From Theionarchaea archaeon (lineage in GTDB: Archaea > Methanobacteriota_B > Thermococci > Methanofastidiosales > SZ-28-30), in the NCBI GenBank assembly GCA_018992685.1, contig JACVGT010000021.1:1-64000 (forward strand): DNA of 64,000 nt, written 5' to 3'. Of this stretch, positions 8,191 to 48,724 are shown piece by piece. The notes below the pieces were generated by a model. The model searched no databases, had not been told where the DNA came from, and saw nothing but the letters and a program-made list of their open reading frames with translations. The position numbers and the translations under genes were made by a program. How positions within the stretch are numbered: position 1 is the first letter of the stretch; every line of letters begins with the position of its first letter.

Positions 8191-8571
8191 ATGGATCTGG
8201 TGCTCACCTCTGATGAGCTCATCACTGTTGGCGTCATTCTCGTAGCCCTCATCTTCGTGTATTTAATAATACGGGAATTCCGGCTCATGAAAACTGATGC
8301 TCGAAAAATGGAAATAGAGCTTGACAGAGAGAAGTTGAAGCTTTTGCAGCAGGATGTGCTCTCCAAGGGTTACCCCTTCACCAGAATGACCTCAGAACAG
8401 TTGAACTACCTCAAGGAAATTGATGAGCAGAATTTTGTGCTGGAAACAGATATCTACGCTAGAGAGAAATCAGCAGAATCCCGATTGAAACGACTCGAAA
8501 ACTATGTTAAACTGGAGAAACTGGATCGATTGCTGGAAAGAATAAAGAAGGAAGAGAAGAAAATAAGGTGA
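8191..8571 (+). CDS. Single-TM coiled-coil hypothetical protein
   Basis: N-terminal TM helix, charged heptads, 1-bp gap to upstream gene. Confidence 0.8.
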   Translation: MDLVLTSDELITVGVILVALIFVYLIIREFRLMKTDARKMEIELDREKLKLLQQDVLSKGYPFTRMTSEQLNYLKEIDEQNFVLETDIYAREKSAESRLKRLENYVKLEKLDRLLERIKKEEKKIR

Positions 8572-8575
8572 ATCC

Positions 8576-8884
8576 ATGTATCCAACAACCACGAGAACGA
8601 GATTAGGAGATTCTCCTCATGTGAGGAGAATATACGGCCTCCCCTCATCACTTGGAGACAGAATACCCACTCTTGAGAGGACGCTTGATGCGTACTTTGA
8701 CATTCACTTTGAAGACATCATACATGAGTGGCAACTGTTGACAGACAATGACCTGCGTGATCTGGAATCGAGGCTTGACCACGTAACCAGGGAGATCACT
8801 GCGTTATACACACAGAAATCTGATCTGGAAAAGAGAGCTGATGCCTTGAGAAAGGAGCTCGAGAACCTGGAGGGATCACCATGA
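8576..8884 (+). CDS. Coiled-coil paralog 1 (LDxYxD...I.EW.L motif)
   Basis: LDAYFDIHFEDIIHEWQLLT then coiled coil. Confidence 0.8.
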   Translation: MYPTTTRTRLGDSPHVRRIYGLPSSLGDRIPTLERTLDAYFDIHFEDIIHEWQLLTDNDLRDLESRLDHVTREITALYTQKSDLEKRADALRKELENLEGSP

Positions 8885-9105
8885 AAGTAATTGACGACTA
8901 TCTTGATGAATATCTGGATCGCAACATGGAATTCCTCATTGAAGAATGGGATCTGGCATCTACAAGGAATATTTCAAGCCTTTCTCGCCGAATACGAGAG
9001 CTTGAGGGCGGTGTGGATCCTGTGAAAGATTTTTGTGACCAGGCGTCCCGGAGACTCGGTGAGCTTGAAGCACGACTCAAAAAATTAAAGGAGGGTTCAC
9101 CATGA
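8881..9105 (+). CDS. Coiled-coil paralog 2
   Basis: LDEYLDRNMEFLIEEWDLAS; ATGA overlap with upstream gene. Confidence 0.8.
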   Translation: MKVIDDYLDEYLDRNMEFLIEEWDLASTRNISSLSRRIRELEGGVDPVKDFCDQASRRLGELEARLKKLKEGSP

Positions 9106-9464
9106 CAGTTGCTGAAGCCCTGCTCTTCCTCATTATACTGGGTATCATCCTCCTGGCGGCTTACTACTTTCTCAAGGGTTCGTCAGGAAGAGTGGAAATC
9201 ACCCGCCCCATTGAAAGTCGCATCGATGAGTACCTTGATCAGAGATTCGACTCCCTCATTTCTGAATGGAGGCTGGTCAGCCGGTCCAGAGTCAGGCGGT
9301 TTGAGAATGAGAAAGCCCCTCAACTTCACGAAGATGAATCACGCATGGCTGAGCTCAGGGCCTTTGAATCGCAGATGAAGGCCACCTTGGATAACCTGGA
9401 GGAACGACTTGATGTCCTTGAAAAGGAAATGGCCAAAGCGGGAAAGGGAAAATCCAAGAAATGA
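9102..9464 (+). CDS. Membrane-anchored coiled-coil paralog 3
   Basis: N-terminal TM, IDEYLDQRFDSLISEWRLVS; ATGA overlap. Confidence 0.8.
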   Translation: MTVAEALLFLIILGIILLAAYYFLKGSSGRVEITRPIESRIDEYLDQRFDSLISEWRLVSRSRVRRFENEKAPQLHEDESRMAELRAFESQMKATLDNLEERLDVLEKEMAKAGKGKSKK

Positions 9465-9711
9465 ACCTGATCTGTTTGCCCAGCTAAGAAGTGAGATCCA
9501 GGCAGTCAGGGAGCAGGGCGAACCTGCACAGAAAAATCCCTCAACCTTTTCCCAGTATCTCTGTGATCTGTGCAGTACATCTCACCCCATATCGGCCCTC
9601 AAGCAGTGTGCAGTGTGTGGCAGGTGGGCATGTCCAGATTGCTGGACTGATACATACTACGTATGTGATTCCTGTGGTGGGATAATTGCTATGAAGAGCA
9701 TAAAGCTTTAA
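9412..9711 (+). CDS. Cys-rich zinc-finger protein
   Basis: CDLC, CAVC, CPDC, CDSC (four CxxC pairs); start uncertain. Confidence 0.75.
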   Translation: MSLKRKWPKRERENPRNEPDLFAQLRSEIQAVREQGEPAQKNPSTFSQYLCDLCSTSHPISALKQCAVCGRWACPDCWTDTYYVCDSCGGIIAMKSIKL

Positions 9712-9734
9712 ATAGTCTGAAGGAAGCGGTATTC

Positions 9735-10211
9735 ATGGAAGAATCTTTTGAACTGGCCGATCGATGGGAACGAATTGCAAAACGGTATGAAGAAGATAAC
9801 TTCCTACTGGAAAAACAGCTGGTAGAAACGAAGATTGAACGCGACCAGTGGAAAAGACAGTATGAAAGTGAGAAAAAGAAGAGCTGGGGCTGGGCTCTGG
9901 CTCTGCTTTCTGTGCTGCTCATTCTTTCTGCGGCCGGGCTTGCCTACTTTGCCACTGAATACGATCGGTTATCCAAGGAAAATCGCAGCCTGCAGTCTCA
10001 ATTGGACGCGGAACAACAGGCTCGCATATCGCTGGAGACGGAGTTGTATGCCGAGATTGATCAGCTGGAAGCTGAAATTGCTGCACTGGAATCAGAGAAT
10101 GCAGTCTATGAGTCCCAGGTTGCGCAGCTGCAACGAGAAGTCGATGATAAGAAGAAGCTCGTCGAAGAACTGCAGAAAATCATTAAAAATCTGCGAGAGG
10201 AGGAGTCTTAG
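9735..10211 (+). CDS. TM-anchored long coiled-coil protein
   Basis: Central hydrophobic helix flanked by heptad repeats. Confidence 0.75.
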   Translation: MEESFELADRWERIAKRYEEDNFLLEKQLVETKIERDQWKRQYESEKKKSWGWALALLSVLLILSAAGLAYFATEYDRLSKENRSLQSQLDAEQQARISLETELYAEIDQLEAEIAALESENAVYESQVAQLQREVDDKKKLVEELQKIIKNLREEES

Positions 10212-40306: not shown

Positions 40307-40766
40307 GCTAGTAACTACCCACAATAGCTTAAAAGACTTTGTGAGCCTCAGGCCTCTCTGGGATGTCCCTGGCGAAGGAAGAATTGAAGAAGAGCCTCAC
40401 TATGATGGACTTCTTTTTGTATTTTATCCGGGATGGACTTCCCTGAGAACTCTGGCCAACAAAGCACTCAAGATCTTGAGGTGGAAAGAAAAAACCAGGC
40501 AAGAGAAACGACTTAGGAAGGAATTTTCACTGAATGAAACCTTCGTAATTGAGCATTAATGTTAATAACCTGATGATGAAATGAATATATCTTGGAAAAT
40601 TTCCTAGAAAGGTGGTATTTCTGTGATCTGAAGACACGTTTGACATTTCAAGTGGTATTCGATATGCAACACTCGCCATATACCAAGTTTGTTTTCGCGT
40701 AAATACGGAATGGATATTTTCAGCAAAGTATTTATATACAGCTTTCTAAGAGAGGCAGGGAATCCA

Positions 40767-41504
40767 ATGAACACATACATCGTGTCCTTGTTGAGCAGAA
40801 ATGGAAAGAAGGCTGTCGAATCGCTCAATTCCAATCTCAATTCAAAAGATCTGTTTTCTAAGATGCCTTCCACCATGAGCTTCGACGTAAAGTTCGATGC
40901 GGATGATGGCTACATTTTTGTTCTATCGGATGAGAAAGTGCCACTTAGCTTTTTCTACCTGAAAGAAGAACGATTCTACGACTTGAATACAGTGAATATA
41001 TTAAATTTAGATAGAATGAACTTTATGCTGAGTTTCGTAAAGGGAATTGGAATTTTGAGGCGTGGTGATCCCCTCAAGTACATTTCATCAGAAATAAATC
41101 CATTAATTGGTAGCTCTCTATTCAACGATCCAAGTATTCTTGAAATAAGGCAATTCAGCGACAAGGAGATGCAGTGGCAAACCTGGAAAGGAGATTTGGT
41201 GAGCATTACTCTCGAATTGCCCGATGCCAAGGTTATCTCAGTAAGAGGAAGAGAAATAGAATCAAAAATAGAGGAATTAGAGCTTTATCCGAATAATAAC
41301 AACAAGATAGCAGAAATCAGGATCCATAATGCGGATTTCAATAGATATATCACGATAAGAAGAAACGGAAAAATGAGGATTGCGCTATGGCCAGGTGAAA
41401 TCAAAATGGAAGATCTGAACGAAAAAACGTTATTCTCTCGATTCTCGAAAAGAATGATTAATCTTTATGAATACGTGCAACAGGCTGTGGGTGAGGAGCT
41501 GTGA
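40767..41504 (+). CDS. Hypothetical protein, island gene A
   Basis: TTTATATA at 40731-40738; open 245-aa frame; GTGA overlap with next gene. Confidence 0.75.
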   Translation: MNTYIVSLLSRNGKKAVESLNSNLNSKDLFSKMPSTMSFDVKFDADDGYIFVLSDEKVPLSFFYLKEERFYDLNTVNILNLDRMNFMLSFVKGIGILRRGDPLKYISSEINPLIGSSLFNDPSILEIRQFSDKEMQWQTWKGDLVSITLELPDAKVISVRGREIESKIEELELYPNNNNKIAEIRIHNADFNRYITIRRNGKMRIALWPGEIKMEDLNEKTLFSRFSKRMINLYEYVQQAVGEEL

Positions 41505-42670
41505 TAGATTTCTATGAGCTGAGCTTCTTGATTCCATTGATACTTCTACACGCGAGAGAAAACTCGATAAGGGGAGGTTTGGGTCGTTTCCAGATTGCAA
41601 AGATCTCGGCGTGGCTTCTTGTGAATTCAGGAATTTGTTCACTTCAAGAAAGAGTTTTCATATATAAGTTCGGCCCATATATCTCCGGATTTGAGAATGC
41701 ACTAGCTGATTTGATAAGACGCAACATAATTGAAATCATAATTGATAGTGAGGGGCAAACAAGATTCTGTATCACGGAGGATGGAAAAAGATGGATAATG
41801 TCTCGTCTCAGGGATCAAGATTCTAGTGGGAGTGAGGTCAAAGCAGCAGAAATCGATCGAATACTATTCACTCCGCTTTCTGACCTGATAGTGGATCTTG
41901 TAGAAAAGTCTCCTTTCTTCAAACCAATTAAATATGTTATTGGGGATAAAGAACTGATTAGGATATTCGATTGGACTAATTTCGGAGATGGCAGAATTCA
42001 TTCATATCATTATACACTCTTGCGCTCATTTTACCGATTGGAGGATTACTTCGACAGAGAGCGTTATGAAGCCGAAACGAAAATGACTGAGAATGATACA
42101 GACTATCAATTGAGGATAATAGACAATTCCGCCATACCAAATACTATGCACTTGGAAGATCTCATCCAAAATTGCAAAGAAAAACATACAATACGCTACA
42201 TTTTCAACAAGGAGAATCCTAGGAGTGTTGCAGAAGACAAGTTTGAGGGGAAGAATTACATTGGACATCTCTGGTATGTGTATAGTGCTATTGACATCAT
42301 TCACACACTGGCCGGATTAGCTCCGACTATAGATGAGATTGCTAGAGTTTGTCTTACAAATTATGAATATTCCATAAAAAAAAGACATGATTATTCCAAG
42401 AGAAGGAAAATGAGAGAAGGGGCTATCCGCTCTGACATGCAGAAATTGGTTAAATATGGTATCCTGAATAGAGGGAAAGTAAATAGGATGTTCATCTACA
42501 GTATTAGAGCAAGAAGAATAGTTGACAGCTATACCTCACAGACCTACTCACTGTTGAATCCTGAGAAGATACGAAATCTATATGAAGAAGTAATTAGACC
42601 TTCCCCCGCAAATGCCGAAATAATCAAGCAGATAATTGCGGAAGGAACGGAAGCGGCAATGGAGGTTTGA
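41501..42670 (+). CDS. YwgA/Panacea(DUF4065)-like wHTH protein with second C-terminal wHTH, island gene B
   Basis: QIAKI..LL...YKFGPY...ENALADL..RNII...FCITEDG; C-terminal PTIDEIA...DMQKLVKYGIL...YSI. Confidence 0.65.
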   Translation: MIDFYELSFLIPLILLHARENSIRGGLGRFQIAKISAWLLVNSGICSLQERVFIYKFGPYISGFENALADLIRRNIIEIIIDSEGQTRFCITEDGKRWIMSRLRDQDSSGSEVKAAEIDRILFTPLSDLIVDLVEKSPFFKPIKYVIGDKELIRIFDWTNFGDGRIHSYHYTLLRSFYRLEDYFDRERYEAETKMTENDTDYQLRIIDNSAIPNTMHLEDLIQNCKEKHTIRYIFNKENPRSVAEDKFEGKNYIGHLWYVYSAIDIIHTLAGLAPTIDEIARVCLTNYEYSIKKRHDYSKRRKMREGAIRSDMQKLVKYGILNRGKVNRMFIYSIRARRIVDSYTSQTYSLLNPEKIRNLYEEVIRPSPANAEIIKQIIAEGTEAAMEV

Positions 42671-42674
42671 TTAG

Positions 42675-44393
42675 ATGAATGAAGAACTTGACGAGTTGTT
42701 GAAATGCTTCTCTCGAAAACGTGTGATAAATTATTATCGAAGAGAGAGGGAAGCACAAGAATCAACCGACGGAGAATCACTGGAGGATATTCAACAAACG
42801 GCAGAAGAAGTGGACATGAAACTCCTCGATGATTTCTTACATTTCATGCAAACTAGAAATATTAACAAACTTGATGATAGTCTCTCAAAAAGAATTGAAG
42901 AATTCAGAAATTTTCTCACAAGAATCGAAGAAGAAATAAAAATAGAAGTCTCTTCAGCTACTCCTGAACAGAACGAGTACTACCAAGAGCTTATTCGAAT
43001 GCTTGAGAAACAGAGGCATTCAGTGGAACTCGTGAAGCAGACTTTTGGATCCTTGGAACCATTTGAATTATCAGGAGCCCTTCTAGACTACTTCGAAATG
43101 CTCAAGGAATTTCAAGAAGCAAGCTTTAAATATCAGCAAAACTACAGAGATCATTTGATTCATTCTCTGCGGGTTTTCCTCTTGATTATCTCGATTCTCA
43201 ATGCAATGGGTGATATTTGGATTTGTATTCTGAGAAGATTCCTTTGTAAGAATCTGCGAAATCTGGGCATAAGGATTAGTAAGAAGCAGTTTGCTGAAGT
43301 TCTCAATCCGGAAGAACTCTGGGATTGTTCAATACAAGGAGTTTCAATAATGTCTTTTTTCCATGATATCGGGATGGTCTATTCCAGATATAGGGAAATG
43401 GTGGATGGCTTGGAAGAAAGGATTTTTGCGGATAGATCTCGCACCGGCATGGAGGGAGACAGATCGATATTTACCTATAAGCCAATTCTTCGCTTGAAAC
43501 ATGAAGCTGTAGGGGAAATAAAAGGAAGAATATCCATTTTCAGTGAAGCACTGGGAAAAATGCATCCAGAATACGAAGAACTTACTACAATCTTAAATCA
43601 CGTGTTCGGGAGCATTGAGAATTCCGAGAAAGAAACTGAAGAAGCGGAAAGTGAGTCTCCTGCGTCCAATGACAAGAAACTCCACGGAGTTTATGCTTTG
43701 CTGAATATTTATACCTATCAAGTCATAGAGAGGCGTTTTCTAGATAGTATTAGAGATCTCGAAAGAGAATCTAAGGAAGTAGAGAGATATAGAAGCTCTG
43801 CTTTCAGAGCATATAGGTCAAATCTAGAATCTGGGGCTAAGATTCCTCCGGATACCCTGCTTGACAACGAATCAAGGGGAAACATAAATAAACAGAAGGA
43901 AATCCTTCGGACGCTAATTCTTTGCGAGGTGTTCAATTGTATTCTGATCCATGATATGGATGGATTTCCATACATGTCTCCGCTTAGTGAGCTATTGATT
44001 TTTGCTGACAACGCTCAAGAATGGAATCGGATTGCATTCGAAGGAGGGTGCAAAAAGCAATATGAAAAAGATCAGATAGAAATCTGCATCAACAAGTGTG
44101 AAAAGGCATGTTTGTTAATTCTAGACTTCTATGAAAAGAAGATGTTTGAAGGATCAGAATCTCTGAATACGCTAATGGATATGTGTACGAAAAGATACAG
44201 TTGTGAGATTGAAGCAGGCGTGTTTGGTATCTTCTATCGCATAAAGGCTAGTGATTACGAAACAAGACGTCCTTCCCAGGCAGTCTTTGTTTGTCCACAT
44301 CTGGAGGTGGGCAAAGGAAGAATTCCACTAGAGGACACAGGAGACATCAGCCTAGACATGTTTTGTCAATATTGTCAATACACTGATAGGTGA
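42675..44393 (+). CDS. HD-domain metal-dependent phosphohydrolase, island gene C
   Basis: RDHLIHSLRV, FHDIG, LHG, IHD, LIFADNAQEWNR. Confidence 0.85.
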   Translation: MNEELDELLKCFSRKRVINYYRREREAQESTDGESLEDIQQTAEEVDMKLLDDFLHFMQTRNINKLDDSLSKRIEEFRNFLTRIEEEIKIEVSSATPEQNEYYQELIRMLEKQRHSVELVKQTFGSLEPFELSGALLDYFEMLKEFQEASFKYQQNYRDHLIHSLRVFLLIISILNAMGDIWICILRRFLCKNLRNLGIRISKKQFAEVLNPEELWDCSIQGVSIMSFFHDIGMVYSRYREMVDGLEERIFADRSRTGMEGDRSIFTYKPILRLKHEAVGEIKGRISIFSEALGKMHPEYEELTTILNHVFGSIENSEKETEEAESESPASNDKKLHGVYALLNIYTYQVIERRFLDSIRDLERESKEVERYRSSAFRAYRSNLESGAKIPPDTLLDNESRGNINKQKEILRTLILCEVFNCILIHDMDGFPYMSPLSELLIFADNAQEWNRIAFEGGCKKQYEKDQIEICINKCEKACLLILDFYEKKMFEGSESLNTLMDMCTKRYSCEIEAGVFGIFYRIKASDYETRRPSQAVFVCPHLEVGKGRIPLEDTGDISLDMFCQYCQYTDR

Positions 44394-44397
44394 TTCT

Positions 44398-45606
44398 GTG
44401 ACAATGGAATTGAGAAGACCAAGTAAGATCCAGGAAAAAATCAATGAGGTCGAAAATGACTTGGCGTGTCTATTCTCTGAGATTGCAGAAAAAGAGAATC
44501 TCGACTTCGCGGAAATCGCCCTAATACCTTTGCCGAGAAGGGGGGCCGGTTTGCTGCCCGATATAAAGAGAATCGATGGCGAAAGAAGTAGCCTCATTAG
44601 CATCCTTGAAGAGTTCGGGTATCTTGAGGAATACCCTTTGTTCCCTCTATTTGAAAGGATTTCGGACTTCAGAATGATACTCATTTTTGATGACCTTTGT
44701 AGAAGAGGAACTCATTTTGCCGAATATGGAGAATATCTGCAGGAGCTTGATAAGATATTCGGGTTTATGAACGAGAAACGTATAGTCCTGGCGACTTATC
44801 TATTACACAAGAATAGATGGAATAGAGAAAAAAATCTCAAACAGGGAATTTACGCAAAAAAAATTCTCGATAAGGAGCCTTTTGATCGAGAAGTGTCAAA
44901 TATATTTTTGACAATAGCATGCAGAGGGGAAATCATCGATGCAGATCATGAACTTATTGAAGCTGAATTTTCAGAAAAGCAGGAGTTCTTTACACTGTGG
45001 AAGGAACTCGAAAAGATTGCAAAGGAGAATCACTGCGAACTTGTAGAAGACGGTATCGATTTTCTTCATCCAAAAAGAAAGAAACTGAGTTTTTTTGTTA
45101 GTGGTGATGAGGCATCGCTGGAGAAAAAAGAGGTTTTGGAAGAACATATGGATCTCAGATTTCCCAAGTTTATTGAAGGAATCAAAATTGCCAAATTTAG
45201 AATGGTTTTCGAGCTTGAATTGTCCGAAGATTGCAAAGGAGTCTTTACCACAAGACTTGAAGCAGTTCCAATTCTTAATCCGATTATTGACAACACTAAG
45301 TTCTCTCCCGAGCTTTGCCGTAAATATTGGAAACCCTACTGCGGGTTCTGTAAAGAAGGCGTAATCTCCGAGGAAGAGTGTAAGAAAAAACAGAAGCCAA
45401 GAATAGATTTCCTGAGGAAGTACTACCATAACCCTGGGTACGACTGCATGATTTGTAATCTTGTGGAGCCTTTTTCGAATCATTTCTGCAAAGAAATCGG
45501 AGACTTGTTTAAAGAGAGTGTTCTCAGGGGCGGGATAACCTTCAAGAGTAGATGGCTTCACCGTGACAGATTATTCGAATTCTGGAGAAAGCTGAAAGCT
45601 CCATAG
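44398..45606 (+). CDS. Phosphoribosyltransferase-like protein with Cys-rich C-terminus, island gene D
   Basis: LIPLPRRG loop and ILIFDDLCRRGT PRPP-binding-like motif; CGFC and DCMIC. Confidence 0.7.
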   Translation: MTMELRRPSKIQEKINEVENDLACLFSEIAEKENLDFAEIALIPLPRRGAGLLPDIKRIDGERSSLISILEEFGYLEEYPLFPLFERISDFRMILIFDDLCRRGTHFAEYGEYLQELDKIFGFMNEKRIVLATYLLHKNRWNREKNLKQGIYAKKILDKEPFDREVSNIFLTIACRGEIIDADHELIEAEFSEKQEFFTLWKELEKIAKENHCELVEDGIDFLHPKRKKLSFFVSGDEASLEKKEVLEEHMDLRFPKFIEGIKIAKFRMVFELELSEDCKGVFTTRLEAVPILNPIIDNTKFSPELCRKYWKPYCGFCKEGVISEEECKKKQKPRIDFLRKYYHNPGYDCMICNLVEPFSNHFCKEIGDLFKESVLRGGITFKSRWLHRDRLFEFWRKLKAP

Positions 45607-45691
45607 CTTCGTGGATGGAAATGTAGAAACTCATTTCTTTTGGGCGTTGTTGAAGTTCTGTCGGTTTTGAGACAAGTAGAATTCCATAGTG

Positions 45692-46141
45692 CTAGCTTGA
45701 ATTGTCTAGACTATCAAAGAGTCTCACATTTTCTTGAGTATCCCCAGCTCTATAATTCAAATACACTTTCCCAAGGAATTTAGAAGCTTCACTTCTATTG
45801 TGAAATTCCCGGAAGAATTTCCCTTTCTTCTCGACCCATTTGGGCTTGACAAATCCGAAATCCAGCGAAATATCCAAAGCACGACCTATTCTTATTTCAT
45901 CTAATGTAAACCCATCAAAGTATTTGTCAAAATGCCTTTTGAATTTCTCGAATCTTCCTCTCAGACGATTGGTTACCATTAGGAAAGAGAACGTCTCGAA
46001 TTGAAGTGTTTCCAAGACTAAATAGAAAGATCTGCCTAATATGGATAGCCCGATTTCCTGATATGGTTTAAGGCTCTTCTCCACAACGATACATGGGAGT
46101 ACCTCCTCACTCCTTTGATCTATACGCTTCACTTTGACCAC
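45692..46141 (-). pseudogene. Hypothetical ORF, possibly the 3' part of a decayed gene
   Basis: 149 open codons starting right after a TAG; interrupted protein-like frames upstream to ~46340. Confidence 0.35.
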
Positions 46142-47298
46142 CTAGCAATCATTTTTCCATACTCTTACGTTCTTTCTGTTTTTGTTTGAGTATGACACGT
46201 CAGTATTTCTGAAGCAATCAAGCTCCTGATCTGACTTCAGAGTTGAATGCAATATCATAGCGCAAATCTGACCTCTTTGAGAAGTCTGAAAGTCTCTATG
46301 ACCTGCCTATCATGAAACCTCAAATCCACTTTCTGAAATGTTTCGACGTGGCTATCGTTTCTCTTTTCTATCCATATAAAACTTTCGGTGAAAGCATCTC
46401 ATTCTGAATTTTTTACACAAATGCTTAATTTGTAAAAAAGTGAGAATTCTCTTGATATCCACGATATGAATAAATTTCAACGCATTTCTTTGCAGTGCAT
46501 GCAGTCGGAGAGGCTTACAGTATACTATACTGAAAAGAGAATTAGACAAGTGTTAGAAGCGCAGAATTCAACAGGTCACAGTATATACAGAATCCTCTGG
46601 AGAACCAGGTGATCTCTGCAGCTCTTAATCTGTTGAGTATGTAATCGGCAAAATCAAGACAATTTCCATGCTCTCTTGCACAAACAACCAGAGCAACTGC
46701 TTTCATGAGCGTTCTGTTAAAGGATATTAGAACACATTTCTATGAAGGCGGTGGATGTGCAAGACGTCCTTGCATAGATCTGCTGCACCTGGACAGCTAG
46801 TTGTTGATTTCGTGAAAGGGTTCCATATTTCTTCAAGTGTGAAGTCAGTATTAATTTCGTAATGAAAGGGAAATATGTCATGAAATTGTGAATGGTCAGA
46901 AATGCCCATGATTCAGACATGGAAAAAGAAGAATCCGAGATATCAAATAAAGAAGTAGTTGAGATCATCAGATTACAAGTCTTTGACCCATCTACCAATG
47001 AAATAAAGAAGCTTTTCAAGGAGAAATATAACCTCTCTTAGAATACGGGGAACCTGTTTAGGAAAGGCGTTCTAGACAAAGCACTAAGACTGGCCAAACA
47101 TCATGCTGGCCACATAGCCAAGAAGAAAAACAAGGATGGGTATATAAAGTTATTTAATAAGAAATATGAAAGTATCACATTTTACAACATTTTTTAGCCT
47201 TTAAAGCCTTCTATAAGCGATCAGAGCTTTCTAGGAAAACTCCATGGCATTAAAATACATAAAAAAAAGGGAAAAAGGCTCAAAAACCTAAATCTGAG

Positions 47299-47372
47299 AG
47301 CCCCGGGAGGGATTTGAACCCTCGACCAACTGATTACAAGTCAGTCGCTCTACCGAGCTGAGCCACCGAGGC
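47299..47372 (-). tRNA. tRNA-Thr(TGT)
   Basis: GCCTCGG acceptor, ACTGA-CTTGTAA-TCAGT anticodon arm, GTTCAAATC T loop. Confidence 0.97.
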
Positions 47373-47434
47373 CTACAGCTTTCTCTTTACCCAGATTTAT
47401 AAACCTTTCTTTTTCGTTTCAGTGTCTCATCCCA

Positions 47435-48724
47435 TCAGAATTTCAGCACTTCCTGGTACCCCGTCAGGTCAAGCAGCCCATGGCCTGAAATATTGAACGC
47501 AATAACCTTTTCTTCATTCTTCTTCTTGCATTCCAGAGCCTCATCAATTGCACAACATATACTGTATGCCGACTCAGGCGCTGGCAGGAAGCCTTCCTTC
47601 TGGACGAATAATTGGGCCCTTTCAAAGACCATTTTTTCATCAGGTGGATACGCAATTGTATCGAGTAATCCTTCATGTCGCAGCAGACTCAGTATGGGAG
47701 AACATCCGTGATAGCGCAGCCCATCTCCTCGTATGGGCACCATCTTTGCCTGGTGACCAAGGGTGTACATTTTCAGCATGGGAGTCATTTCAGCATGGTC
47801 TGCAAAGTCGTACCGATACTCACCCTGCAGATTGGGAGCAGCCTGACTCTGAGCAGCTATAAACCTGATCTGCTTCTTCTTTGTCAATAAATCCTGGTAA
47901 AACGGGATGGCAAATCCACCAAAATTAGACCCACCTCCCAGACATGAAATCACAACATCCGGATAGTCATCGACTTTCTCAAACTGCTTCTTGGTTTCCA
48001 ATCCAATGATAGTCTGGTGCATCAACACGTGGTTCAACACAGATCCCAGAGAATATGCCACCGTATCACTTGAGGCCGCATCTTCCAGTCCTTCAGAGAT
48101 GGCAATCCCCAACGAACCCACATGTTCCGGGTCTTCCTTCAACAATTCTCTTCCAACTTTGGTCTTGTCACTGGGAGAAGCGAACACTTCAGCTCCCAAC
48201 ATCTTCATGAAACTCCGTCTCTCAGGTTTCCAGTTGTAGACTGCCCTCACCCAGTAGATCGTACATTCCAATCCAGCCAGACGAGACGCATACGCCAGAG
48301 CAGTTCCCCACTGTCCTGCTCCCGTCTCAGTCGTCAACCGTTCCAGTCCCTGTTTCTTGGCATAATATGCCTGTACCAGAGCAGTATTTACCTTGTGTGA
48401 TCCTGTAGGAGAGTAGAACTCCGCTTTGTAGTACATTCTGGCTGGAGTCTTCAAGTACTCTTCCAGCCGCCGGGCCCTGAACAACTGCCTGGGCCTGCCT
48501 GCCTGCTCATATAATTGCAGAACACCTTCAGGGATATCTATCCACCGTTCCTGGGACATCTCCTGCTTTAAACATTCACCTATCAATACTTTCTGCAGAA
48601 AATCCAGTCTGGATTCTCCTTCCTCGGGGTTCTTGGGAGGAGGTAGAGGTTGTGGTAAATCGGGAACAATATTGTACCATTTAGTGGGCAGTTCATCTGG
48701 AGAAAGAACAATTTCTGTATGCAT
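47435..48724 (-). CDS. trpB2: TrpB2 (stand-alone tryptophan synthase beta-like)
   Basis: GSHKVNTA, TETGAGQWG, GSVLNHV, GGGSNFGG, SGHG. Confidence 0.95.
   Translation of the reverse strand: MHTEIVLSPDELPTKWYNIVPDLPQPLPPPKNPEEGESRLDFLQKVLIGECLKQEMSQERWIDIPEGVLQLYEQAGRPRQLFRARRLEEYLKTPARMYYKAEFYSPTGSHKVNTALVQAYYAKKQGLERLTTETGAGQWGTALAYASRLAGLECTIYWVRAVYNWKPERRSFMKMLGAEVFASPSDKTKVGRELLKEDPEHVGSLGIAISEGLEDAASSDTVAYSLGSVLNHVLMHQTIIGLETKKQFEKVDDYPDVVISCLGGGSNFGGFAIPFYQDLLTKKKQIRFIAAQSQAAPNLQGEYRYDFADHAEMTPMLKMYTLGHQAKMVPIRGDGLRYHGCSPILSLLRHEGLLDTIAYPPDEKMVFERAQLFVQKEGFLPAPESAYSICCAIDEALECKKKNEEKVIAFNISGHGLLDLTGYQEVLKF

Follow-up and report, generated by a model that had tools for sequence, protein, structure and literature searches.

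A rare five-gene archaeal cassette that looks like an undescribed virus-defence or toxin-antitoxin module

Introduction

What is the function of a compact, AT-rich cassette of orphan genes in the genome of an uncultured archaeon? This question was raised by a 64,000-nucleotide stretch of Theionarchaea archaeon DNA (GenBank assembly GCA_018992685.1, contig JACVGT010000021.1, positions 1 to 64,000 of the forward strand), referred to below as the window, in which five genes, here designated A to E, were examined. The window represents contig C6 of a 3.03-Mb archaeal assembly (45 contigs, 91% complete). Genes A to D had been proposed in a first-pass annotation, made from the sequence without database searches, to form a defence or conflict operon. 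Judged from its predicted proteins, the cassette looks like an undescribed virus-defence or toxin-antitoxin module, combining two proteins of DNA-binding type (A and B), two enzymes acting on nucleotides (C and D) and one small protein (E).

To our knowledge, few archaeal antiviral systems have been characterized beyond CRISPR and restriction. If the reading is true, the cassette would represent an archaeal nucleotide-targeting system with a sensor of the RexA fold, RexA being the still poorly understood sensor of lambda Rex exclusion. It would also be a second, independently evolved toxic pair of a phosphoribosyltransferase (PRTase) and a phosphoesterase, helping to define the action of PRTase effectors, and would place three orphan families (A, B and E) in a context for the first time. 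Given the extreme rarity of the families and the uncultured host, the general importance may be small.

Organization of the cassette

Four translationally coupled genes were found behind one TATA box, followed by a convergent fifth gene, the whole being located in a low-GC islet (Table 1). The TATA box, TTTATATA, precedes gene A on the + strand. In the window, this octamer occurs nine times versus 0.84 expected, and a count of nine was reached in none of 100 shuffles; it therefore acts like a true promoter element. Gene A had been listed from a TTG codon at 40689. The ATG at 40767, yielding a 245-residue protein, is the likelier start because of its spacing from the TATA box and because the closest homologue of A also begins with MNTY. 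This ATG begins 28 nt after the end of the TATA box, implying a leaderless or short-leader mRNA. The stop codon of A and the GTG start codon of B overlap as GTGA (41501-41504), and 4-nt gaps separate B from C (TTAG) and C from D (TTCT). Over positions 40500-47499 the G+C content was 0.37-0.41, compared with 0.44-0.52 in both flanks.

The TATA box at 40731, the co-orientation of A to D, the GTGA overlap, the two 4-bp gaps and the AT-richness relative to the flanks had all been stated in the first-pass annotation and were confirmed by reading the junctions and by base composition. Its placement of the operon downstream of tRNA-Thr was half correct: a tRNA-Thr(TGT) gene is nearby, but it is located on the minus strand, 1.7 kb past the 3' end of the operon. 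It is the 3' end of this tRNA gene that the low-GC stretch adjoins, and in terms of transcription the operon does not lie downstream of the tRNA. Likewise, the set of four genes is present as described, but the conserved fifth gene, E, on the minus strand, had been overlooked.

Predicted catalytic sites of C and D

The putative metal site of C is of the HD type and is intact, as deduced from an alignment of four family members. The H...HD...D pattern of metal ligands of the HD superfamily (PF01966) was found in C, and H163 (within RDHLIHSLRV), H230-D231, H337-G338, H426-D427 and D445 were invariant in all four sequences, as were Q448-E449-W450 and R452. The full ligand set that had been read from C beforehand (RDHLIH, HD, HG, HD, D..QEW.R) is thus conserved throughout the aligned family. 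At the profile level the likeness is faint: one of the four members matched PF01966 (E-value 0.1, 13.4 bits), below the gathering score of 22 bits. The best Pfam match of C itself was HD-CE (PF24391), with 18.8 bits and an E-value of 0.0014 using hmmscan and 19.6 bits in a whole-genome search. No meaningful match was obtained in a search of Protein Data Bank (PDB) sequences with the C profile.

Similarly, the predicted pyrophosphate (PPi) loop and the acidic phosphoribosyl pyrophosphate (PRPP) motif of a PRTase are intact in D. A hydrophobic strand, two acidic residues and a glycine-containing phosphate loop, preceded by a PPi loop, were all recognized. R47-R48-G49 (PPi loop) and F97-D98-D99, C101 and G104 (PRPP motif) were invariant in eight of eight family sequences, as were four cysteines (C307, C318, C328 and C350) located within the strongly conserved C-terminal 230 residues; the PRTase-type DD motif and Cys-rich tail pointed out earlier are therefore family features. 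Seven of the eight members matched Pribosyltran (PF00156) below threshold (best 22.8 bits, cut-off 26.3) and six matched PRTase-CE (PF24390) below threshold (best 20.3 bits, cut-off 27), both matches spanning residues ~20-170. Using hhalign, the PPi loop and PRPP motif of D were aligned in order with those of the orotate PRTase of the same genome (LIPLxRRG with GIPLA, and IVIFDDVCxxG with VLIVDDVITTG; E-value 0.0038, probability 8.7%). A search of the ESM Atlas with D gave no score of at least 0.9; weak leads (0.76-0.77) pointed to clusters with 15% PRTase-CE or 14% Pribosyltran members. The D profile found no meaningful match among PDB sequences.

Predicted fold of A

No match to A was obtained in Pfam, PHROGs, PADLOC or PDB sequences, using both sequence and profile searches. 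A structure model built from an alignment of 18 diverse sequences was confident (predicted local distance difference test score (pLDDT) 87.1, predicted template modelling score (pTM) 0.86), and on this model A is an RdgC/RexA-like protein, which had not been foreseen in the first-pass annotation. The top Foldseek match was E. coli RdgC (2owl_A, E-value 3.1e-6, TMq 0.55), followed by CENP-L and Iml3, both kinetochore proteins. When 48,161 chains were compared using VIA-align, the values were 11.5 (root-mean-square deviation 4.4) and 216 for RdgC, 9.0 and 183 for CENP-L, about 8 and 114-172 for CENP-N and Iml3, and 6.7 and 132 for lambda RexA, the likeness of the modelled chain to the RdgC/RexA fold extending over most of its length. 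In the viral structure library BFVD, 14 matches were found at an E-value of at most 1e-3, and seven of these carry the name RdgC or recombination-associated protein.

A homodimer was also predicted for A, with a score of 0.44 (best control 0.00) that narrowly exceeded the mark of 0.42 and may mirror the solved RdgC dimers. Of 30 proteins solved as same-chain pairs, 20 attained this mark, compared with one of 23 solved as single chains. In the dimer model the runs shared at least 82% of contacts, partner pLDDT was at least 82, and a symmetric interface was formed by residues 151-171. Since RdgC dimers have already been solved, this outcome is taken as a likeness and not as proof. RexA, the sensor side of lambda Rex exclusion, is reported to be a DNA-binding dimer structurally homologous to RdgC (PMC11077077). 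From the modelled fold, A is presumed to be a DNA-binding sensor.

Conserved motifs of B

B is the best conserved component, with homologues at 53-66% identity. Its most invariant block, FDW.NFGDG..H.YHYTLLRS, lies centrally and has no family assignment. Among the 18 members of the B family, scattered winged-helix matches below threshold were obtained in Pfam (Penicillinase_R in three; PaaX, DUF4364 and HTH_27 in one each), while none matched SocA_Panacea (PF13274, gathering score 25.7 bits) at an E-value of at most 10. With the Panacea model, no match was found in this genome at an E-value of at most 1e-5, and eight of 133 genomes of the phylum contained one. When residues 1-115 of B were compared by hhalign with a profile of eight true Panacea ORFs (open reading frames), a score of 25.1 was obtained (E-value 0.0027, probability only 11%), versus a mean of 12.5, a standard deviation of 1.9 and a maximum of 16.9 in 60 column shuffles; the same comparison with the A, C and D profiles gave E-values of 0.42-0.47. 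The aligned part covers residues 49-81 (VFIYKFGPY..F..AL..L....I), just 33 columns around an invariant GPY. What survives of the Panacea likeness of B is thus a local motif similarity, not family membership. ESM Atlas returned no score of at least 0.9 for B, and PDB sequences gave no meaningful match to its profile.

Gene E and a related locus

Among metagenome contigs, at least one related locus was identified (L003, 2206 bases). It comprises a C homologue of which just the C-terminal ~127 residues are present, followed by a full D homologue and a convergent E homologue, the latter being 40% identical to E (E-value 2e-29). E itself had no match in Pfam, PADLOC, NCBIfam, PHROGs or PDB sequences. 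Based on this conserved position and sequence similarity, E is a probable member of the module, which the first-pass annotation did not foresee. The co-occurrence of homologues expected there was observed for C, D and E in this locus.

Distribution of the families

All five genes belong to very rare families and were not found in the relatives searched. Among 5.8 billion proteins, homologues were limited to seven clusters for D (38-57% identity), three for C (32-36% identity, 7996 best candidates scored) and 17 for B. For A, 1.84 billion representatives were searched exhaustively using HMMER, which gave 17 homologues at an E-value of at most 1e-3, three of them at 50-56% and the others at 24-30% identity. 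C and D were absent from all 40 relatives, including two same-genus genomes that are 88% and 84% complete, in keeping with genes that are accessory, not core. Elsewhere in the phylum, the A-family profile gave no match in 132 genomes. A search of 185,579 species, each represented by a single genome, recovered no relative of D or B, and 2.9 million viral contigs contained no homologue of D, B or C. Using tblastn, B and D were not detected in 50,697 phage records or 72,556 plasmids. The accessory status of the cassette is supported by these searches.

In six cases, homologues of B and of D and/or C had longest contigs of equal size (19988, 11508, 6105, 11607, 6658 and 5847 bases), which is indirect evidence that they share contigs. 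On the 11508-base contig, identities to the window proteins were 58% for B, 44% for D and 36% for C; B is far better conserved than C or D within shared contigs.

Comparison with known systems

For the families HD-CE and PRTase-CE, Nicastro et al. 2023 (NAR 51:11479) reportedly predicted a role in immune systems, in which free nucleotides would be broken down at their phosphate or glycosidic bonds. For C and for the D family these are the Pfam families that score best or nearly best, but their cut-off of 27 bits lies above all values obtained (18.8-19.6 bits for C, at most 20.3 for the D family), and D itself did not match. True HD-CE and PRTase-CE proteins in related archaea sit elsewhere, in an AAA ATPase fusion, in a protein kinase cluster and beside a MazE-PIN pair. 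In the first of these (L029, G101:C103:2-1852), an AAA/STAND-type ATPase forms the N-terminal part of a fusion with a PRTase-CE domain (72 bits) that is truncated where the contig ends. In the second (L048, G095:C19:1199-8696), seven co-directional ORFs, possibly a separate conflict system, begin with a true HD-CE (75 bits) and include a Ser/Thr protein kinase, a hexapeptide-repeat protein and three proteins for which Pfam gave no match. In the third (L049, G025:C60:630-2619), a 274-residue HD-CE protein adjoins the MazE-PIN pair. CE is short for conflict effector, and a recent preprint (bioRxiv 10.64898/2026.01.15.699771) attributes the families to Nicastro et al. 2023. The same preprint describes PUA-Cal-HAD, in which two phosphoesterases form a sequential cascade depleting deoxynucleoside triphosphates under a sensor domain.

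The nearest tested analogue is ShosTA. According to two reports (PMC11961720; PMC12961424), ShosA is a DNA-binding protein that engages proteins of recombination, and RdgC was among those pulled down with it (PMC11961720). The likeness would lie in a PRTase domain and a phosphoesterase that jointly disturb nucleotide metabolism, as proposed here for C and D, and in a neutralizing or sensing partner that is probably a DNA-binding protein tied to recombination. There are also clear differences: ShosT fuses the PRTase with a HAD-type pyrophosphatase, whereas the cassette has separate genes and an HD enzyme; ShosA is DprA-like, whereas A is predicted to be RdgC-like; and ShosTA consists of two genes, whereas the archaeal cassette has five. 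Any ShosTA models that the PADLOC library contains gave no match to the five proteins at an E-value of at most 1. As ShosTA is a tested precedent for a PRTase and a phosphoesterase with a DNA-binding partner, C and D are proposed to be a two-enzyme effector that would be held or triggered by A and B.

Other systems share single components with the cassette. Lambda RexAB and E. coli RdgC resemble A in its predicted fold, but without detectable sequence similarity and with about 300 residues compared with 245; moreover, the cassette has no RexB-like membrane protein, and the partners of A are putative enzymes. In SocA_Panacea (PF13274; bioRxiv 10.1101/2021.05.07.442387), the core 'GP' motif aligns with the N-terminal hydrophobic-x-Y-x-x-GPY...F...L..L of B, whereas typical Panacea proteins (160-200 residues) lack the two further conserved regions of the 389-residue B. 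With regard to dGTPase/SAMHD1-type defence, HSLRV (the motif with the first His) and FHDIG of C resemble HSLG and HDIGH of a SAMHD1-like HD protein of this genome, but the alignment is confined to the HD motif (hhalign probability 1.5%) and no PADLOC match was obtained. The term 'PRTase-CE' was not found in the literature searched, and a search for RdgC in an anti-phage PRTase/HD context yielded only the ShosTA paper and two surveys. Provided that the arrangement is not already listed by Nicastro et al. 2023, what is new would be a nucleotide-targeting, conflict-type cassette of orphan families with a component of predicted RdgC/RexA fold.

Proposed function and alternative explanations

The five genes are proposed to be a horizontally acquired, nucleotide-targeting conflict module, abortive-infection or toxin-antitoxin-like, and the chance that this is correct is put at about even. 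A, as an RdgC/RexA-like DNA-binding ring or clamp, and B, as a winged helix-turn-helix (wHTH)-type protein with a Panacea-like motif, would sense foreign or abnormal DNA or neutralize the enzymes. Once triggered, C as an HD phosphohydrolase and D as a PRTase-like enzyme would jointly attack free nucleotides or PRPP. Hydrolysis of PPi or of the product might drive the PRTase reaction; alternatively, C might free a nucleoside monophosphate and PPi, after which D would cut the glycosidic bond. By either route nucleotide pools would collapse or be distorted, halting replication of virus and host, while E may be a small regulator or an antitoxin-like accessory. For a two-enzyme cascade of C and D on nucleotides or PRPP specifically, the probability is lower and the assignment doubtful. 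Tentative, too, is the most detailed version, an undescribed archaeal abortive-infection system in which the ring of A and a Panacea-like, multi-wHTH B would detect viral replication or recombination intermediates and release an HD and PRTase cascade that destroys nucleotides (at phosphate and glycosidic bonds) or drains PRPP, as a split, non-homologous counterpart of ShosT built from orphan families; it probably does not hold in all these particulars. Of the conflict-module reading in the first-pass annotation, the best Pfam match of C to HD-CE, the PRTase motifs of D and the accessory status stand in favour, but neither C nor D reaches the Pfam cut-offs.

Several results weigh against the conflict-module proposal. 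Any fold assigned to B, C, D or E is putative. D itself had no Pfam match, and PRTase-CE did not match D in the search of its own genome at an E-value of at most 1; C stayed below the HD-CE cut-off, and the other three members of its family had no HD-CE match. Comparison by hhalign with true members from related archaea was uninformative for both profiles (E-value 0.14 for C with HD-CE; 0.016 for D with PRTase-CE, PRPP motif only). The structure model of B, built from 18 homologues, was unusable (pLDDT 37.3) and gives no wHTH count, so that the earlier description of B as a 'YwgA/Panacea-like double wHTH' protein retains its local similarity to the Panacea core but neither the domain count nor a match to the Pfam family. 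RdgC-fold proteins also work in ordinary recombination control. Eleven of the 17 B clusters had no D or C homologue on a contig of equal size; four of these 11 are on contigs shorter than 5 kb, and for several partnerless contigs their shortness prevents telling whether a D or C partner is present. PADLOC-DB v2 gave no system match, in agreement with the earlier remark that the arrangement was not recognized as a named system, and only chance-level matches to single proteins (PtuB, E-value 0.0078, for A; LmuC, E-value 0.022, for B; none for C, D and E). NCBIfam and PHROGs likewise yielded no match. All 52 other ORFs of at least 90 residues scanned in the window were housekeeping or unassigned, without a known defence gene nearby. 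The cassette is therefore an isolated islet and not part of a defence island, and with neither a PADLOC match nor a neighbouring defence gene there is no guilt by association. No integrase was found in any frame of 45600-47400, no tRNA arm repeat (attachment site, att) was found, and no island-less variant was seen in genomes G001 and G002 or in metagenome contigs, so recent mobility is not supported. Finally, among the runs listed as containing the sequence, 14 were DNA runs and none was an RNA run.

The same data were weighed for three other explanations. The cassette might be cargo serving a mobile element or virus, in which the RdgC-like modulator and wHTH regulators would steer the DNA of the element while the HD and PRTase enzymes would tune nucleotide supply or counter a depletion defence of the host. 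The tRNA-adjacent low-GC islet has end segments in common with elements located by tRNA-Cys and tRNA-Ser, RdgC-like proteins are common in phages (the 14 BFVD matches), and assemblies break at the islet edges and, in relatives, at the tRNA; but the viral contigs, phage records and plasmids searched contained no homologue, and the islet carries no integrase, capsid or replication gene, making this explanation unlikely. A regulated metabolic pair is considered somewhat less probable again. Here PRPP would be used by the PRTase to form a nucleoside 5'-monophosphate of an unusual kind, which the HD phosphatase would dephosphorylate to give an analogue, a salvage product or a signal, with B and E as transcription factors. 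A PRTase followed by a phosphatase is a standard nucleoside route, the catalytic motifs of C and D are both intact, and B shows wHTH-like hints. On the other hand, no transporter or further biosynthetic enzyme is present in the islet, an RdgC-fold protein has no role in such a pathway, the families are extremely rare and patchy, and the nearest Pfam families are conflict-effector versions.

It is very improbable, in our estimate, that an old insertion has lost its function and persists as a decaying remnant. The missing att repeat and integrase would fit such decay, as would a nearby small ORF broken by a stop (46892-47197) and the L003 locus, which holds just the end of a C homologue; but five intact ORFs are tightly coupled, the catalytic residues are invariant across homologues at about 33-57% identity, and an identical 6323-base contig was recovered in a run of another study.

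Genomic setting

The cassette is directly flanked by genes for a Na/Pi cotransporter and PhoU on one side and by tRNA-Thr and a TrpB-like gene on the other. Housekeeping proteins encoded elsewhere in the window include RadA, RPA, PolB, adenylosuccinate synthetase and acyl-CoA carboxylase. Coordinates of all features are given in Table 1.

Table 1. Features of the cassette and its tRNA-proximal flank (positions in the window)
Feature	Coordinates	Strand	Remarks
TATA box TTTATATA	40731..40738	+	Octamer in excess in the window
Gene A, 245 aa	40767..41504	+	Orphan family; RdgC/RexA-like fold (model); predicted homodimer; presumed DNA-binding sensor
Gene B, 389 aa	41501..42670	+	Best conserved component; GPY motif, central block, C-terminal wHTH-like region
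Gene C, 572 aa	42675..44393	+	Putative divergent HD phosphohydrolase; helical N-terminal region; C-terminal C/H..CxxC tail
Gene D, 402 aa	44398..45606	+	Divergent PRTase-like N-terminal domain (predicted); conserved C-terminal domain with four invariant Cys
Gene E, 149 aa	45692..46141	-	Small protein convergent to D; position kept in L003
Gene-poor low-GC spacer, E to tRNA	46150..47297		tRNA-proximal ~400 nt also at other tRNA genes of the genome
tRNA-Thr(TGT)	47298..47372	-	3' end adjoins low-GC islet

An old insertion at a tRNA-linked hot spot is suggested by the surroundings. The ~400 nt beside the 3' end of tRNA-Thr (46937-47289) are 75-83% identical to segments that the same genome carries by tRNA-Cys (contig C27) and tRNA-Ser (contig C1). 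At those sites, the segments frame a low-GC element (L058, G000:C27:70817-74200, and L059, G000:C1:8428-11276) encoding a small HTH protein and a protein of 664-669 residues that shows no more than weak wHTH hints; that interior is absent from the window. In the two same-genus genomes, contigs end a few to ~60 bases from tRNA-Thr (C14 of G001, L011; C283 of G002, L012). In G002 (C37, L019), PhoU is followed by an RNase Z-like gene and no cassette, so this flank, having other neighbours, is not syntenic within the genus. The identical 6323-base contig (X3) spans exactly 40333-46655, and no metagenome contig bridges the islet.

Contigs C5, C3 and C4 also carry shorter copies, of the ~110 nt nearest the tRNA. 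A 19-nt repeat (46963/47324) was considered as an att candidate and discarded, being no longer than other chance two-copy families. On the + strand at 46892-47197, two small frames (49 and 51 codons) are split by a single in-frame stop and resemble one broken gene, without PHROGs match. Rfam found only the tRNA. In four metagenome runs, summed depth over 46575-47387 was 70-278 in X3 and X7, versus about 11 or 0-6 over the cassette, indicating that the tRNA and adjacent repeats are common to many genomes or copies. Elsewhere in the window, at 8191-10208 (+), a 100-residue Prok-RING_2 protein (E-value 1.8e-27) was found among four small ORFs without Pfam match.

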